A stretch of DNA of 64,000 nt, from the sequence record PZ166176.1; one strand, written 5' to 3'. The position numbers and the translations under genes were made by a program. This document shows, piece by piece, positions 10,134 to 57,821 of this stretch (the first letter of the stretch is position 1; every line of letters begins with the position of its first letter). Source of the DNA: a phage. The notes under the pieces were generated by a model. The model did no database searches, was not told where the DNA came from, and worked only from the letters and a program-made list of their open reading frames with translations.

Positions 10134-10152
10134 GAAAAACAAAGAGGTACTT

Positions 10153-10464
10153 ATGAACGAGATGTTCTCACAAGGTGGTAAAGGTTCAACTGGAATCTTA
10201 ACCAATAAACAAGCAGTAGCCCGTCACTTTGGAGTTAAACAATCTGAGGTTGTTTACTTCTCAGTTGGTGCACTGCTTGATGGGTACAAAGTTATCTATG
10301 ATAAGGAGACGCAAAGGGCGTATTCCCTACCTGCTGATATTGCCCCAGGTACTATTGCCATTAGTCTTAGTGCTGCCGGAGTATTAGTTCACTCTGCGGG
10401 TAATGTGGACCTTGGGGAATTAGCTGTATCTCGTGATTTAAAAAGTAATGAGAACGCACTATGA
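10153..10464 (+). CDS. hypothetical protein
   Basis: 103 aa ORF with RBS, between tailspike and baseplate genes. Confidence 0.4.
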   Translation: MNEMFSQGGKGSTGILTNKQAVARHFGVKQSEVVYFSVGALLDGYKVIYDKETQRAYSLPADIAPGTIAISLSAAGVLVHSAGNVDLGELAVSRDLKSNENAL

Positions 10465-29077: not shown

Positions 29078-29871
29078 TATTCCTCCTTTCTAATGTTCTC
29101 CAGAACCCACTGAAGTTCTTTTAAACTTAAACTTCTTACTCCCGCAGTTTTACTAGCTTCAGCTTTAAGTAACGGGTAAGCCTCAATGATACGCGTTTTA
29201 AGATCAGAAGTCAAGGCTTTTAAAAAATAGGTAGATGCTTCAGATAAAGAATCTTCTTCTGATAACACTTTACCTGCACTTGCTCCCGCTCTCCTAACAG
29301 CTATATCGTAGTCTTTACTGTTACCTAATACGAACAGTCGATTCTCTCCTAAAACAACGGGAGAACGCTTCTCGTTGCGTTTAATCCATACTTGGAATAC
29401 ACAAGGAACATCCCAAGGTTCTCCATGAAGAATAAAAGATCCTTTTGGACATTCTTCTTCGTAAAGAAGATGCATATGGGGATTTAGTTTGTGTGCAAAA
29501 AAGATTTTTTGAAATGTGCGAGGCAAGATAAAACAAATACCACCTTCGTTATCCAGCATTTCAGCACAATGGTTAAAGAATTTAATGGCAAGACTAGCAT
29601 TTTTTCCAAATGGAGGATTACCGACAAAAGCAGTTACACTACCAACAGACTCAACAGATTGAGCTAAAAAATCTGCCTCAATACAATCTTCAAACTTAGG
29701 GTCAATATCAAAAGAAGTTATGTTTTTAAAACAAGAAGAGAAAGCTCCTTCTCCCGCAGATGGTTCTACGTAGTTAGCTTCCTCTCCAAAAATTTCTTTG
29801 ATCTTATCACATAAGAACCCCGCATAAGCGGGGTTAGTGTAATATTGATCAAGTGTGTTCAACTTGCTCAA
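29077..29871 (-). CDS. N6-adenine DNA methyltransferase (gamma-class, TaqI-like)
   Basis: DQYYTNP (target-base motif), VEPSAGEGAF (SAM-binding motif I) then NPPFG (motif IV) in gamma-class order. Confidence 0.75.
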   Translation of the reverse strand: MSKLNTLDQYYTNPAYAGFLCDKIKEIFGEEANYVEPSAGEGAFSSCFKNITSFDIDPKFEDCIEADFLAQSVESVGSVTAFVGNPPFGKNASLAIKFFNHCAEMLDNEGGICFILPRTFQKIFFAHKLNPHMHLLYEEECPKGSFILHGEPWDVPCVFQVWIKRNEKRSPVVLGENRLFVLGNSKDYDIAVRRAGASAGKVLSEEDSLSEASTYFLKALTSDLKTRIIEAYPLLKAEASKTAGVRSLSLKELQWVLENIRKEE

Positions 29872-29880
29872 TAGTCCTCC

Positions 29881-36034: not shown

Positions 36035-36318
36035 CAGTGAATCTCCCCTAAAATATTGTTTTGAGACATTACTGCGGAGCATTCTACAGCATCATGAGTC
36101 CTTGCAAAACGCTCCCACAACACAGCATCTACTTTAAGAACCATACAAGGATAAATACTGTCGTTGATCATGTCAATGCTATATTTATCTACATCCTTTT
36201 CATCTTCCATAAACAAAGTAGCGTATGCTTCTAAATGCTTACGGGTGTAGTATACATCCTCTTCAGTAAGACCGACAACCAGGTAACTTGCTACAACAAC
36301 AGTATTATCTTCTTGCAT
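36034..36318 (-). CDS. hypothetical protein
   Basis: Start moved to the internal ATG (MQEDNTVVV) one nt after the SleB-like stop, with an AGGGGAG RBS. Confidence 0.4.
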   Translation of the reverse strand: MQEDNTVVVASYLVVGLTEEDVYYTRKHLEAYATLFMEDEKDVDKYSIDMINDSIYPCMVLKVDAVLWERFARTHDAVECSAVMSQNNILGEIH

Positions 36319-36319
36319 T

Positions 36320-36841
36320 TTAACTCCCCTTTGGTAGATAGAAACCATGCACTTTATCTCGATAAACAAGACGCATATCACGTTCCCAGTGTGTCCTTAT
36401 ATTCCGTTTCTTGAAGTATAGAGCACCTTTAGTAACATCTAAAACAGACCGCAATTCAGGAAAATGTTTCTCTAAATAAAGTAAACGCTCCGCTATTGCT
36501 TTTGCTTCCTGCCACTTATCTTTCTCTGTTACGTTAAAAGTTTTCGCATATGAGAATTGTCCTTTCTGGAACAAGACTCCTCTGACTGTGTTAGGGAAGT
36601 AGGTATCATTTCTTCTGTTGATTACCACGTTCCCAACGGCATTCATTCCTTTTTTACCCAGACCGCGACCTTCTGCGTAAATTGCACAAGCTAATAGAAT
36701 TTTATCATTATATTGCTTTGTACATTTGTGAACTACTTTAGCGGTTTTTACGTTTGCAGCTTCGGCTTTCGCCACAACAGGTGTAAATGTAAAAGCAGTT
36801 AAGGATAGTAACGCAACTGTTACAAAGTTTTTTATCAGCAA
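36320..36841 (-). CDS. secreted cell-wall hydrolase, SleB / Hydrolase_2-like
   Basis: Signal peptide (LLSLTAFTFTPVVAKA) then LACAIYAEGRGLGKKGMNAVGNVVINRRNDTYFPNTVRGVLFQKGQFSY; apparent TTG start 7 nt after AAAGGAGG. Confidence 0.6.
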   Translation of the reverse strand: MLIKNFVTVALLSLTAFTFTPVVAKAEAANVKTAKVVHKCTKQYNDKILLACAIYAEGRGLGKKGMNAVGNVVINRRNDTYFPNTVRGVLFQKGQFSYAKTFNVTEKDKWQEAKAIAERLLYLEKHFPELRSVLDVTKGALYFKKRNIRTHWERDMRLVYRDKVHGFYLPKGS

Positions 36842-36873
36842 ATTTTGCCTCCTTTTTAAGTTAACGAATTTCT

Positions 36874-36902
36874 AGTATAGCACGATAGAGGCTTTATTGC
36901 AA
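36874..36902 (-). promoter_or_regulatory. sigma70-like promoter (TTGCAA-17 nt-TATACT)
   Basis: On the - strand: TTGCAA, 17 nt, TATACT, about 25 nt before the AAAGGAGG RBS; same -10 as the promoter at 30346. Confidence 0.5.
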
Positions 36903-36922
36903 GAGGGGTATTTCTCCCCCTC
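36903..36922 (-). terminator. hairpin downstream of the TerD gene (weak terminator candidate)
   Basis: GAGGGG-N8-CCCCTC hairpin between the TerD stop and the promoter; no clear T-tract. Confidence 0.3.
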
Positions 36923-36940
36923 AAAATCATTTGTTAATTA

Positions 36941-37543
36941 TTATGGACATTCATACCATTCTTTTTTACCACCGAAGGCCATCACCACATCACAAATATC
37001 CAGACCAGCTTTACCTACACCATATGCTTTCAGCTTCCATTCCCCATCTTCACGGACCAAGGAAGCCACGTGGCAGATTGTGTTGCCAGCTACTTCAGGA
37101 GCCAGGAAGTCAAAATCCAGAATTTCCACATTGCGCTCGGAGTCGAAGATTTTAAGCATACCTTCAGAAGCATGACCAAAACGTTTCAGACCTGTATCAT
37201 CATCAATGGTCAGAACAAAGGCAATCTCTTGTGCATCAGGAGAGATTTTAGCTAGAGTAATATCAATCTGCTCCATGCTGCCAGTTCCATCACGAACATC
37301 GTCACCAGCGAAGGTAGAACGTTCAGGATCAAACTTGTTAGCATAGCAAACCAGATGACGTGCAGACAGCATTTCAGGATTGCCAGCGGCATTGTGACGA
37401 CAAACCAGTGCACTTACATCCAGATCCAGTTTAGAATCAGATTTCCAAGAGAATTCAAGGCGCAGTTCTTTCAGAGCCGGAGCAACTTTCTTCAGGGAAA
37501 TTTTTTCGCTAGAGCCTTTTTTCAGGGAAATTTTATCAGTCAT
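36941..37543 (-). CDS. terD: TerD-domain protein (tellurite resistance TerD/TerE/TerZ family)
   Basis: 200 aa; co-linear with E. coli TerD as recalled from memory: ISLKKG...ISLKK vs VSLSKGGNVSLSK; LDLDVSAL vs FDLDASAF; GDDVRDGTG...IAFVLTI vs GDNRTGEGDG...IIFVVTI; EDGEWKLKAYGVG vs HNGEWKFRAVGQG. Confidence 0.85.
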   Translation of the reverse strand: MTDKISLKKGSSEKISLKKVAPALKELRLEFSWKSDSKLDLDVSALVCRHNAAGNPEMLSARHLVCYANKFDPERSTFAGDDVRDGTGSMEQIDITLAKISPDAQEIAFVLTIDDDTGLKRFGHASEGMLKIFDSERNVEILDFDFLAPEVAGNTICHVASLVREDGEWKLKAYGVGKAGLDICDVVMAFGGKKEWYECP

Positions 37544-37558: not shown

Positions 37559-37828
37559 TTATTTAAGTGTAATACCAGTTACAGTCAATTCTACTTCCAA
37601 AAGCTTAGATGTGTTTTGGATTGATACTAATTGTGCATGATGGTTTAGTTCTACAGCAGAACAATCATTTTCCCCATCATCTACTTTTAAATAAACAATG
37701 ATTTCACTAAGGTCTAAACCATTTTCGTCAAATGCATTTTCATAGACGAAAGTATCTCCTACATCCAAATCTTTAATGGTAAGGCATCGTTTATTTACTT
37801 TTTGCTCATCAATTTCGAAGTTTAACAC
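37559..37828 (-). CDS. hypothetical protein (paralogue of 38850..39194)
   Basis: 89 aa; shares DLDVGDTFVYENAFDENGLD and a C-terminal LEVELTVTGITLK with the 114 aa ORF. Confidence 0.45.
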   Translation of the reverse strand: MLNFEIDEQKVNKRCLTIKDLDVGDTFVYENAFDENGLDLSEIIVYLKVDDGENDCSAVELNHHAQLVSIQNTSKLLEVELTVTGITLK

Positions 37829-38057
37829 TTCTTCCTCCTAATGTTATCTCCGGTTTGTATATACGAAGAATTATAGCATTTTCATTTTCTTTGTCAACCC
37901 ATTCTTCATAATCGGGCCATACATGAATCTCTACTCTACTTACAATATCTTCCATTCGCACAGTCCCAATGAAATACTCTTTGAGACTGCGCATAATGAA
38001 AGCTTCTCTCTCGCGCCAATAATTTTCTATGACTTGAGAGGCAAGCTCGTCGATCAT
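37809..38057 (-). CDS. hypothetical protein
   Basis: 82 aa ORF, ATGA-coupled. Confidence 0.4.
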   Translation of the reverse strand: MIDELASQVIENYWREREAFIMRSLKEYFIGTVRMEDIVSRVEIHVWPDYEEWVDKENENAIILRIYKPEITLGGRSVKLRN

Positions 38058-38848
38058 TTTTTAGCACCTACTTTAACAACCCACTCTCCGAACTCTTCAG
38101 ATAAGAGTTTGTCATAAAGCTCTGAATCTGTCAAGTCTAAATCTTTAATGCCAATAAAACCAACATTATCATAAGCATTTGCCAGTTCTTTCAGGAAGCC
38201 GAACTTCTCATTACCAACGCCAACCATGAACCAATAAATAGGTTTATTCTTATTCTCTTCGATAAGACGACGAACAGCACTAGGATCACCATTCTCACCA
38301 TCCGTCTGGAAGAATACAACACCAGGGGTAACGTCAGCACCTGGTTCAGATACAGCTACAACTTTTTCACGCTCTACAGACACTGTTTCAGTTTTACCAA
38401 GCAGACGATTAAAGAAGCCTTTCTTTGGAGCCTCCTCTTGTACCACTTGTTTAGTGGTAATATATTTAGTAACAGTGCCAAAATACTCATCGTAGATATC
38501 CGCCATTACAGGGGCGTAATTTGTTCCACCTCCGATACGAACATTACGCATACATTTGCCAACATAGTCATCGTAAACATCTGCTGTTGCTGGAGTAAGC
38601 TCTTGGGAACTCGTATTGAAGGCCCACATATCAATTTGTTGATTATCGTCGAACAGCATACCAAAAGGAAGCAGTTTACCTACAAAATCACTCACTACCC
38701 CACTAGAATATAGACCATGCATACTACCAGAAATATCTAGAGCACATGCTACACGAAGAACAATCTTACCTTCATTCAGGTTCTTATTCTTTTTCAGAGA
38801 GAAAGCAAGGTTTTCTTGACGTTTTTTCAGGCTGATTTTCTCGGACAT
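38054..38848 (-). CDS. von Willebrand factor A domain protein (TerY-like)
   Basis: 264 aa; MIDAS motif ACALDISGSM and FFQTDGENGD; N-terminus MSEKISLKK echoes the TerD N-terminus. Confidence 0.6.
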   Translation of the reverse strand: MSEKISLKKRQENLAFSLKKNKNLNEGKIVLRVACALDISGSMHGLYSSGVVSDFVGKLLPFGMLFDDNQQIDMWAFNTSSQELTPATADVYDDYVGKCMRNVRIGGGTNYAPVMADIYDEYFGTVTKYITTKQVVQEEAPKKGFFNRLLGKTETVSVEREKVVAVSEPGADVTPGVVFFQTDGENGDPSAVRRLIEENKNKPIYWFMVGVGNEKFGFLKELANAYDNVGFIGIKDLDLTDSELYDKLLSEEFGEWVVKVGAKK

Positions 38849-40053: not shown

Positions 40054-40250
40054 TACTCCTCCTCCTCATTGAAGTCAATATCTGCAAGGAGTTCGAATTT
40101 ACGGAAGTTACGACAACCTTCATAAATATAACAATCACGACAAACTGCTAGAACACTTGCGGGATATATACCTCCCATCGGTGCGAATCGTTTTTCGTCA
40201 TCATAACGGACACCAATGTCTTCATCAATTATATAGATACGGATTCTCAT
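40053..40250 (-). CDS. hypothetical small protein
   Basis: 65 aa with Cys pair CRDC...C. Confidence 0.4.
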   Translation of the reverse strand: MRIRIYIIDEDIGVRYDDEKRFAPMGGIYPASVLAVCRDCYIYEGCRNFRKFELLADIDFNEEEE

Positions 40251-41359
40251 TTACCAAGCCCTCGTTTCACAGCAGCTACCATCCCGTCTTCCAGAGATTG
40301 AACTTCATTAATATAATCAACACGAGCAGCACGGGCTTCCGTATTGATGCGGTTAGTTTCTTCCAACATCTTAACCAAGTTTTCCTGATCGTGACGCAGA
40401 GTTTCAATATCCAACACTTGACGGTTAGCCAGTGCTGCTGCTTCGATCTGATTCTGTGTGGCAAGATCGCTACCCAGTTTAATTGCCAGGTTAAATTCAT
40501 CAAGAACGTTATTCTGCGTCTCTGCTGCTTTCATTTGACGTAAGCTCTCGATATACATTGAGAAGTTAGCAGAGTAAGCAGGAATAACATTATTTACTAT
40601 GTTACGCGCAGATCGCATTAAGCTTGCAGAAACTTTTTGCATACCTTGTACACGCGGTCCCATTTGGACACACAGTAGGCGCAATGCTTTTAAATCTGCA
40701 ATACGAATCTCCAGAAGATCCAAAGTATCTCGGATCACTTGTCGCTGTTCTACTGCATCTTCTGGAAGAGCAGCCAAAGCTTGTTCTTCTTTTTCATAGG
40801 TTGCTGTTAGAAGCTGCATATCTCGGTTCAAACTTGCAGCATATTGTCCAATAGCTTGATGCAGCTTTTCAAGATATACCAAGGAATCTTCTTCTTTGCG
40901 AATATCCATTTGAAGGTTCTTTACCAACTCTTCAATACGGTTATTAACATTATCAAACTCCCCGAACAGGTCTTCTTTCATACCCATAACTTTTTTAATG
41001 AGTTTAGTAATACCCTTGCTTTGTTTAATAGAGTTTGGATCAAGTTGTTTTGCCTGTTTAATCAAAGCTGTGAGTCGTTCACTCATCTGATCGCCTTGAT
41101 TACTACGTTGATGTTTTAACACCTCGGCATTCAAGGAACGCAAGGTTGTTCCTGCCTCTGCCCCAATCTCTTCAATCTCTTGTCGGGTCATAGAAGGCAA
41201 AACTGGAACTTCTTGCGGTGCCGCTGGTGCATAAACAGGACTGGCATCTAACACGCTTGGAGCGAATACAGATTTACTTGCATCTGTTGTTGCAGCGAAT
41301 ACACTCATTTCAGACTTCTTCTGACCACCAGTAGCTGCTTTTAAAAATGGACTTGTCAT
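40247..41359 (-). CDS. TelA-like toxic anion resistance family protein (candidate)
   Basis: 370 aa all-helical protein; segments LIKQAKQLDPNS, QMGPRVQGMQ...NVIPAYSANFSMYI and LDIETLRHDQENL resemble TelA/KlaB as I recall them; same strand as TerC and TerD. Confidence 0.45.
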   Translation of the reverse strand: MTSPFLKAATGGQKKSEMSVFAATTDASKSVFAPSVLDASPVYAPAAPQEVPVLPSMTRQEIEEIGAEAGTTLRSLNAEVLKHQRSNQGDQMSERLTALIKQAKQLDPNSIKQSKGITKLIKKVMGMKEDLFGEFDNVNNRIEELVKNLQMDIRKEEDSLVYLEKLHQAIGQYAASLNRDMQLLTATYEKEEQALAALPEDAVEQRQVIRDTLDLLEIRIADLKALRLLCVQMGPRVQGMQKVSASLMRSARNIVNNVIPAYSANFSMYIESLRQMKAAETQNNVLDEFNLAIKLGSDLATQNQIEAAALANRQVLDIETLRHDQENLVKMLEETNRINTEARAARVDYINEVQSLEDGMVAAVKRGLGK

Positions 41360-42995: not shown

Positions 42996-43182
42996 ATTTG
43001 CTTTCCTCATTTTGACTATTAATACATCTGTGTTTGAAATCTCCAGAGAAGCAATAAAGTTGCTCTCCATCTCGGTATAAACTCACTTTACTGCCGTTGA
43101 TTACGCTTGTCAATACAAAAATTACAACAAACAACCCTATTGCAAAACAAATATTTTCAAACACAATCAACAAGTATTTCAT
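42937..43182 (-). CDS. small membrane protein
   Basis: 81 aa; N-terminal TM helix (LLIVFENICFAIGLFVVIFVLTSVI); 3' end overlaps the lipoprotein start in another frame. Confidence 0.4.
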   Translation of the reverse strand: MKYLLIVFENICFAIGLFVVIFVLTSVINGSKVSLYRDGEQLYCFSGDFKHRCINSQNEESKYEKTSPDFNWLYLFNSLRG

Positions 43183-43529
43183 TTTAAAAATACCTCATCA
43201 TCAGTTTCATTATCCCAGAAGAACAAATCCCAACCATTCGGATCATTCCATTTGGCTGCTGGAGAAGTCCATATTTGTTCGATATCAATATTCAAAACTT
43301 CACCGTTTCGTTTTGAAACAGCTTTAGTTAATTCCCAACGAGATACAGGCTCTACTTCCCCTGAACCACTCCCACAACAAGCTACCACGTTAGGAGGCAA
43401 ATTAATTGGATCTTTGGTCACGATCATAACGCTTACCCCAGGGTAAACTTTTGAAAGATAATCTAAAACGTAATCCACATCACCAGATAAATCCCAAACA
43501 AGTTCTTGAATTTCATCAAAATTATTCAT
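43179..43529 (-). CDS. hypothetical protein
   Basis: 116 aa acidic ORF with GGAGAG RBS. Confidence 0.45.
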   Translation of the reverse strand: MNNFDEIQELVWDLSGDVDYVLDYLSKVYPGVSVMIVTKDPINLPPNVVACCGSGSGEVEPVSRWELTKAVSKRNGEVLNIDIEQIWTSPAAKWNDPNGWDLFFWDNETDDEVFLK

Positions 43530-57503: not shown

Positions 57504-57821
57504 TTATTTTTTGGTAAGTAGATAAATCAATTGTTCACCTGCTTCTGGTGCATATAGTGCTTTAGTATCGAAGTCAAAGAAGTGAGTGACTCCTGTTACT
57601 TTGGATGCATGAATAGATAATCGTGCAAGCTTAAGCAGATTATCCATTTCCGCAATCTTTGCACGAAATACTGCACGTGTAGTGTCAAAAGCTGCATGTG
57701 GCATGTATTTACGATTTAGACTACTACGTTTAAATTTACGATAATCTGCAATGATCCTGTTACGTTCTTTGTTCAAATGTTTTACCAGTGCAGTATATAC
57801 ATGTGGTTCTTTGTTAGCCAT
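57504..57821 (-). CDS. hypothetical basic protein
   Basis: Start moved to the internal ATG (MANKEPHVY); Lys/Arg-rich. Confidence 0.4.
   Translation of the reverse strand: MANKEPHVYTALVKHLNKERNRIIADYRKFKRSSLNRKYMPHAAFDTTRAVFRAKIAEMDNLLKLARLSIHASKVTGVTHFFDFDTKALYAPEAGEQLIYLLTKK

Follow-up and report, generated by a model that had tools for sequence, protein, structure and literature searches.

Why would a phage of a type that already encodes a cytoplasmic lysozyme and spanins keep, among its replication genes, another wall hydrolase that starts from a weak codon and is predicted to be exported? The question is raised by a gene on the minus strand of a 64,000-nt stretch of phage record PZ166176.1, the whole of which is called the window below. 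A 3.5-kb query around the gene placed the window in Phapecoctavirus (Stephanstirmvirinae; myoviruses of about 150 kb). Escherichia phage phAPEC8 and over 60 further records of this genus match the query at 99% identity, and a further 60-odd relatives, among them Justusliebigvirus and Klebsiella phages, match it at 60-80%. An earlier note on this DNA, made from the letters alone, had pointed to the gene as one for a secreted SleB-like hydrolase. Following our analyses, the explanation that we favour as a whole, and regard as probable, is that the product is an auxiliary, Sec-exported, holin-independent muralytic enzyme rather than the main endolysin. The gene is not novel, since its domain is named in two earlier papers; its product is a second wall hydrolase of phAPEC8-like phages, which is on record and annotated and is experimentally uncharacterised. 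From sequence comparison, what appears to be new is the conservation of weak start codons, the conservation of a promoter belonging to this gene, and a hairpin on the strand antisense to its 5' end. The gene and its catalytic part are located as follows.

36320..36841, minus strand: coding sequence of a 173-amino-acid, predicted exported peptidoglycan hydrolase of the SleB/CwlJ type (Hydrolase_2), orthologue of phAPEC8 gp067 / phAPEC8_00199
36338..36733, minus strand: catalytic domain, residues ~37-168 (Pfam match, residues 62-168), from Pfam, profile alignment and structure prediction with Foldseek
36671..36673, minus strand: codon for Glu57, invariant within the motif Y-x-E-x-R-G, aligned with the Glu of SleB YGESRGE and presumed to be the catalytic glutamate

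A profile search gave a match to Pfam Hydrolase_2 (PF07486) of 64.1 bits against a gathering cut-off of 27 (E=1.9e-17), covering positions 3-100 of the 100 in the profile, and PHROG 938, labelled 'endolysin', was matched with E=1.2e-18. When a profile built from the homologues was compared with the PDB, only the SleB catalytic domains 4f55/4fet were matched (E=6e-10), at 25-26% identity and with ...YAESRnqG... standing opposite ...YGESRGEpylG... in the alignment. An AlphaFold2 (AF2) model built on 73 diverse homologues reached a predicted local distance difference test (pLDDT) score of 86, compared with an unusable 57 from an alignment of 18 close homologues, and when this model was searched against the PDB with Foldseek, 4f55/4fet were again the only significant fold matches (probability 1.0, TM (target) 0.71-0.74). 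Seven residues were invariant among the 73 homologues, namely Glu57, Arg59, Asn75, Arg76, Pro83, Trp152 and His165, and from the chain numbering we take Glu57 to be the equivalent of SleB Glu157. Profile score, fold and catalytic Glu agree, and the protein is a member of the Hydrolase_2 family. It is not a SleB equivalog, as the NCBIfam spore_SleB equivalog model TIGR02869 scored 51.7 bits against a cut-off of 236.5, with the match confined to the catalytic part (profile positions 79-159 of 201). The phage protein has in common with the SleB/CwlJ spore-cortex lytic enzymes of Bacillus the catalytic fold and the Y-x-E-S/G-R-G motif with its catalytic Glu. Unlike SleB, it has no N-terminal peptidoglycan-binding domain, no YpeB or GerQ partners, and a predicted Sec signal of the Gram-negative kind. 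Because the peptidoglycan-binding domain is absent, its single-domain architecture is that of CwlJ.

The start of the gene is defined by two elements.

36839..36841, minus strand: TTG start codon; no other start lies between the in-frame stop upstream of it and the signal sequence
36848..36853, minus strand: Shine-Dalgarno sequence AGGAGG, 6 nt before the TTG and retained at 5-6 nt spacing in homologues

An in-frame TAG lies 11 codons upstream of the TTG, with no ATG, GTG or TTG between them, and the next candidates, a GTG at codon 23 and an ATG at codon 66, would either remove the signal sequence or truncate the domain. The annotation of phAPEC8 has contained the same 522-nt coding sequence since 2012, under the names 'putative cell wall hydrolase SleB' in GenBank (phAPEC8_00199, AFU62770.1) and 'endolysin' in RefSeq (gp067, YP_007348567.1), and TTG is therefore the start already on record. 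The phAPEC8 gene and its Phapecoctavirus orthologues have the same length, the same TTG and the same gene position, in a locus with 99% nucleotide identity; this is the same gene, with no substantive difference. The full-length protein has a computed mass of 19.81 kDa and a pI of 10.0. TTG was kept in all 15 Stephanstirmvirinae-like genes examined, rV5-like homologues start with TTG or GTG, and the homologues of T5-like and Pseudomonas phages start with ATG. Two rV5-like contigs of about 146-147 kb from IMG/VR, L025 (at 1480-1500) and L026, present no ATG, GTG or TTG ahead of the signal sequence. In both, an ATC sits 5 nt behind GGAGG (GGGAGG), in the context ...AAATGGGAGGTTAACATCAAATAT..., and judging from this position the ATC is probably the start, a very rare initiator that would be in line with the weak starts across the group.

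The N-terminal part of the protein carries the predicted export signal (a slash marks the predicted cleavage site), and two cysteines follow.

36764..36841, minus strand: predicted Sec signal peptide, codons 1-26, with the n/h/c architecture (n-region MLIK; h-region FVTVALLSLTAFTF; c-region TPVVAKA/EA)
36686..36724, minus strand: codons of Cys40 (36722-36724) and Cys52 (36686-36688), a candidate periplasmic disulfide; the pair is kept in the phAPEC8-like and rV5-like groups

The protein begins with M-L-I-K, continues with 20 uncharged residues that include Pro21, and then reads AKA/EA. AF2 confidence was low over residues 1-32 (pLDDT <55), in agreement with a signal peptide at this end. The same signal architecture was found in homologues with unrelated N-terminal sequences, in VEcB, a Klebsiella phage, Ro1 (...TPVLA/KES), naam (...PVVA/AP) and Bf23 (...SQA/SH), and most of 79 homologues from viral contigs have a hydrophobic N-terminal segment. 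Such a segment is also present in the Pseudomonas-phage homologues, without a clear cleavage site. The rV5-group homologue CB7_83 is described as toxic in E. coli and as having a predicted signal peptide (PMC7344957). Other lineages have different sets of cysteines, which are even-numbered, and the mature part of each homologue examined has an even cysteine count; these even numbers fit an oxidising compartment. The earlier note had proposed the Hydrolase_2/SleB-like core, the TTG start and the cleavable signal peptide, and the first two are borne out by these results, while the third holds as a prediction.

The place of this enzyme in lysis has to be judged against the other lysis genes of the same genome type. 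In phAPEC8, gp172 is a cytoplasmic T4-like lysozyme that begins MAKVVDEFDMLRVDEGLKLTVYQD..., with an ATG start and no signal, and gp121/gp120 are an Rz-like i-spanin and an overlapping lipoprotein o-spanin, found just ahead of the terminase gene. Two lytic enzymes, with Phage_lysozyme and Hydrolase_2 domains, are stated for the genus in genome papers (PMC10793346; PMC12210895). A holin-like neighbour was sought in the window, and the three small downstream open reading frames (ORFs) had no Pfam hit and, on inspection of their translations, no hydrophobic segment. A SleB-like gene stands alongside a separate canonical endolysin in PVP-SE1/rV5-like phages, and the T5-like phage Bf23 carries a SleB-like homologue. 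T5 has a separate peptidase endolysin. The structure of that T5 enzyme is referred to in the paper on CB7 (PMC7344957). The auxiliary role is the better explanation because a canonical lysozyme and spanins belong to this genome type, no holin adjoins the gene, and SleB-like genes and endolysins coexist elsewhere.

Under this explanation, host RNA polymerase would transcribe the gene from its own sigma70-type promoter within the replication and metabolism block, and the weak TTG behind a strong Shine-Dalgarno sequence would give a low rate of translation. The product would then be exported by Sec through its N-terminal signal peptide, with cleavage predicted after Ala26, to become a periplasmic enzyme of about 17 kDa and pI about 9.9. 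A Cys40-Cys52 disulfide probably stabilises this enzyme beside the catalytic helix that carries Glu57. In the periplasm it may pre-weaken or remodel the sacculus and so assist the canonical set, made up of the cytoplasmic T4-like lysozyme, a holin and the Rz/Rz1-type spanins.

Several observations weigh against an auxiliary exported enzyme. The label given by RefSeq and PHROGs is 'endolysin', which would allow a main lytic role. A paper on O177 phages found no signal peptides in a 173-amino-acid 'endolysin' of 19.78 kDa and pI 9.98 (PMC10698182), evidently an orthologue of the SleB-like protein; we rate this paper as of low quality. Conservation is higher in the hydrophobic core of the signal than in the catalytic domain, which is atypical of a cleaved signal, and our explanation for this unusual conservation is the nucleotide-level hairpin described below. 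SleB, the characterised member of the family, is a lytic transglycosylase, and muramic-delta-lactam, a known substrate feature of SleB, is absent from E. coli. Any bond specificity carried over from SleB to the phage enzyme would therefore be an extrapolation. Our literature searches found no functional work on phage Hydrolase_2 enzymes, and no enzymatic, localisation or timing reports for this phage clade.

Perhaps the gene encodes the principal endolysin, of the secreted signal-peptide type, which Sec would export throughout infection and which would stay inactive in the energised periplasm until freed by a holin or pinholin that collapses the membrane potential, as for Lys44 of the Oenococcus phage fOg44. 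The database labels and the predicted export signal agree with this, and so do two reports on homologues, since CR3_087 has been described as implicated in lysis and the expression of CB7_83 as toxic (PMC7344957). However, the same genome type has the canonical cytoplasmic T4-like lysozyme with its spanins, the three small downstream ORFs offer no adjacent holin, and the gene lies among replication genes behind a host-type promoter. We consider a principal endolysin rather unlikely. The signal-peptide endolysin of the earlier note thus stands as a predicted exported type of hydrolase and is not supported as the endolysin of the phage, given the gp172-type lysozyme, the spanins and the lack of an adjoining holin; its other suggestion, an exolysin, found no support.

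The position of the gene and its expression signals bear on another explanation. The earlier note had placed the gene on the early strand and, in terms of location, this is correct, as the gene is found in a long minus-strand block for replication and nucleotide metabolism and has a sigma70-like promoter of its own.

36874..36902, minus strand: sigma70-type promoter TTGCAA, 17-nt spacer, TGcTATACT (extended -10), of putative function, with transcription predicted to begin near 36867
36903..36922, minus strand: terminator-like GC-rich hairpin GAGGGG-N8-CCCCTC after the TerD gene; in relatives it is more clearly a terminator and has a T-run

The -35, the TG, the -10, the AGGAGG and the TTG are all retained in VEcB, the Klebsiella phage and metagenomic relatives, with a spacer that varies. 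The arms of the terminator-like hairpin differ in sequence between relatives and keep their complementarity. In the Vequintavirinae Ro1 (L009) and naam (L010), at about 1495-2500, the SleB-like gene follows directly behind an intrinsic terminator, has no visible promoter and lies directly upstream of rIIA; this arrangement suggests expression at the level of read-through. Taken with the reported toxicity, the conserved weak starts suggest selection for a low dose. A non-lytic early role would fit these signals, namely limited peptidoglycan remodelling for enlargement or alteration of the sacculus, for division, or for interference with superinfecting phages. The gene sits in an early/metabolic block with its own host-type promoter and adjoins rIIA in rV5-like phages, its expression looks deliberately throttled by weak starts and by the terminators directly upstream in Ro1 and naam, and a full canonical lysis set coexists with it. 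However, no such role is known for phage members of this family, and toxicity on over-expression fits a lytic enzyme equally; we regard it as improbable.

Two other sets of expression signals were observed. Inside the minus-strand gene block, at 37870-37897 on the minus strand and upstream of the ORF 37559-37828, there is a perfect sigma70 consensus promoter (TTGACA, 16 nt, TG-TATAAT; 12/12 matches), similar to the TTGACA-type promoters that are marked as 'host dependent promoters' at other places in phAPEC8. In the early region of phAPEC8 (L005/L006, outside the window), the 20-nt motifs for which the annotation reads 'putative promoter determined with PHIRE' (GTAGGGCGGCAATGGTGCCGCTC) form short GC hairpins, GCGGCA/TGCCGC, and may be RNA structures or terminators instead of promoters.

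Improbable as well, finally, is an N-terminus that stays uncleaved as a signal-anchor or signal-arrest-release (SAR) domain and tethers the enzyme to the membrane in an inactive state that lasts until depolarisation, in the manner of P1 Lyz or phage 21 R: a long uncharged stretch (20 residues) containing Thr, Ser and Ala, its conservation above that of the catalytic domain, the hydrophobic N-terminal segment of Pseudomonas-phage homologues with no clear AXA site behind it and a Cys 5 residues ahead of the catalytic Glu would suit it, but there is a good A-x-A site with Pro at -6 that is kept in rV5-like and T5-like homologues, the h-region has no Gly and not the Gly/Ala richness typical of SAR domains, and the high conservation is accounted for by an RNA/DNA hairpin in which synonymous sites are frozen too.

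This hairpin lies on the strand opposite to the gene.

36715..36828, plus strand: 114-nt, 46-bp imperfect hairpin, antisense to codons 43-5, an island of nucleotide conservation with the signal-peptide c-region as its apical loop
36828..36833, plus strand: T6 run at the 3' foot of the hairpin; hairpin and T-run together resemble an intrinsic terminator or an RNA 3' end

Among 18 homologues, identity was 89% in the signal core (residues 5-21) and 67% in the catalytic domain. When codon pairs with identical amino acids were compared, synonymous differences amounted to 5% in codons 5-21 and 13% in codons 27-44, against 45-54% in the rest of the gene; the signal core is therefore frozen by constraint at the nucleotide level. 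The conservation profile had one island only, between about -10 and +170 of the gene, in which pairwise identity was 0.80-0.96, compared with 0.55-0.78 for the rest of the gene and <0.5 upstream. Codons 43-26 and 24-5 form the two arms of the hairpin, with the variable c-region at the apex, and a T-run of at least five T follows it in 10 of 14 homologues.

Folding of the plus strand gave a minimum free energy (MFE) between about -47 and -53 kcal/mol, and against shuffled controls z was -4.2 (197 nt) and -5.9 (160 nt), whereas the sense strand had a z of about 0. This asymmetry between strands arises because the stem contains 7 G.U pairs and no A.C-type mismatches, and it was also obtained with DNA folding parameters. 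In a sliding MFE scan of the whole 64-kb window, the hairpin was the top GC-corrected outlier of the plus strand. Variation avoids the paired positions, as 3 of 82 paired columns were variable compared with 16 of 32 unpaired ones (p=2.7e-8). With the structure predicted from the window only, the corresponding counts were 10 of 100 and 17 of 34 (p=3e-6), and for third codon positions 4 of 34 and 7 of 11. The 114 nt of the hairpin were found by blastn in all 132 of 132 related phage records (65 at >=99% and 67 at 90-95%), while a control piece of the same length from the 3' half of the gene was found in 67 records only. The antisense fold was more stable than the sense fold by 6-23 kcal/mol in 14 of 15 homologues. 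The apical stem varies yet stays paired, as GGC/GCC, UCGGC/GCCGA, CGGC/GCCG, ACAGCA/UGCUGU or UGGCAC/GUGCCA. One double change was seen in the stems and the covariation score was not above that of shuffles; formal covariation is not significant because the main stems hardly vary. We rejected the hairpin as a feature of the whole family: homologues of rV5-like phages (naam), T5-like phages and Pseudomonas phages lack it, as do the most diverged ones, including the relatives L019, L096 and L093 (53-59% identical), and in Ro1 it is weak or absent.

Other causes for the conservation of this segment were considered and rejected. A structure in the sense-strand mRNA was set aside on its folding z-score of about 0. 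Dual coding would have to involve the sole plus-strand ORF in the hairpin (36713-36802, 29 amino acids, TTG start), whose start is missing from 5 of 7 relatives and in which the variable sites fall on first codon positions. Recent recombination of the 5' segment was rejected because the loop in the middle of the island is highly variable, amino-acid changes included, with both arms frozen.

Perhaps, then, the hairpin is a functional element of a plus-strand RNA: a cis-antisense regulator, the terminator or stability stem of such a regulator, or a target of RNase III. It would act jointly with the weak TTG to throttle or time the production of a toxic hydrolase. We put this forward tentatively, as a possible though somewhat doubtful function. 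The hairpin could also be a plus-strand terminator, or a single-stranded-DNA signal, for example for replication priming. Upstream of the hairpin, the plus strand showed no conserved promoter of the sigma70 type, and an antisense sigma70 promoter is not supported, as the only candidates, TTGCAC-18-CATTAT (weak) and a site at 36582-36609, are not conserved. Both strands of 36200-37100 were scanned with Rfam and gave nothing at E<=1, no phAPEC8 PHIRE motif lies near the locus, and literature searches for transcriptomes of this phage group found none. If the hairpin does regulate the hydrolase, it would constitute a control circuit resembling type I toxin-antitoxin systems inside a virulent phage, and it would explain a signal-peptide sequence that is frozen across a whole phage subfamily.

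Cis-antisense control of toxic genes is known from the type I toxin-antitoxin system hok/sok and from lambda OOP and P22 sar. The hairpin shares with these a structured element opposite the 5' part of a gene with a toxic product and, in most relatives, a T-run. However, its 46-bp stem is far longer, its target is a 173-amino-acid enzyme, and no antisense promoter was found, so that this is a resemblance only.

Further stable folds of 150 nt with strand asymmetry (GC-corrected z about -3.2 to -4.0) were recorded in the scan of the window. They lie on the minus strand at about 43026-43200, 29701-29875, 326-475 and 37951-38100, and on the plus strand at 57601-57750 and 10151-10325. As an example, the fold at 43051 had -45.7 kcal/mol on the minus strand compared with -17.1 on the plus strand.

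To return to the protein, the nearest known setting for an auxiliary exported enzyme is that of endolysins that cross the membrane by themselves, such as the signal-peptide endolysin Lys44 of fOg44 and the SAR endolysins P1 Lyz and phage 21 R. By analogy, the phage protein may work like an exported endolysin, of the fOg44 Lys44 type and less likely of the SAR type. What it would have in common with all three is a Sec-dependent and holin-independent export, here predicted, and the need for restraint before lysis. It differs from them in its catalytic family and in the separate canonical cytoplasmic lysozyme found in the phAPEC8-type genome. Among SleB-like proteins, the Vequintavirinae hydrolases CB7_83 of a Pectobacterium phage, CR3_087 of a Cronobacter phage and naam_76 of an rV5-like phage are equal in length to the window protein and about 35% identical to it, and they also share the predicted signal peptide, the Cys pair, the non-ATG start and the placement among early genes. 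The neighbours differ, being rIIA in the Vequintavirinae and a Ter cluster in the window phage, and a candidate class II holin overlaps the CB7 gene and not the window gene.

In the window, baseplate and tail-fibre genes occupy the plus strand up to about 22.6 kb, and from there to about 58.9 kb all genes are on the minus strand. This minus-strand block includes genes for DNA polymerase, primase/helicase, four glycosyltransferases and ribonucleotide reductases, as well as the SleB-like gene and a TerD/vWA-TerF cluster. As in phAPEC8, the SleB-like gene is located between the TerD gene and the glycosyltransferase genes.

36941-37543, 38054-38848 and ~40247-41359, minus strand: Ter-like stress cluster directly upstream of the hydrolase, with a TerD-domain protein (E=3e-28), a vWA-TerF-like protein (E=2e-37) and a 370-amino-acid ORF

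By its length, the 370-amino-acid ORF (~40247-41359) appears to match the 'tellurite resistance' gene of phAPEC8, with coordinates that do not map exactly. The locus is also 91-99% identical to that of E. coli phapecoctaviruses in records labelled Campylobacter phage, Acinetobacter phage vB_AbaM_ABPW7, Pseudomonas phage PsgM04F and Dompiswa phage, and the host labels of these records look doubtful.

The earlier note had offered the gene as noteworthy; the gene was already annotated and in the literature, and the nucleotide-level hairpin at its 5' end had escaped notice. Phages of this group are widely used coliphages and therapeutic candidates, and they would carry a predicted exported muralytic enzyme beyond the canonical lysis set. 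The 'endolysin' of RefSeq should not be taken as the endolysin of these phages. Across four phage lineages, the candidate roles of such enzymes are those of a lysis helper, of wall remodelling and of exclusion. The conserved weak starts and the upstream terminators suggest dosage control of a toxic product, which is relevant to attempts at its expression as an enzybiotic. The antisense hairpin is a clear case of a nucleic-acid structure that constrains the sequence of a signal peptide, and it would be a new regulatory RNA of phages, provided that it is transcribed.

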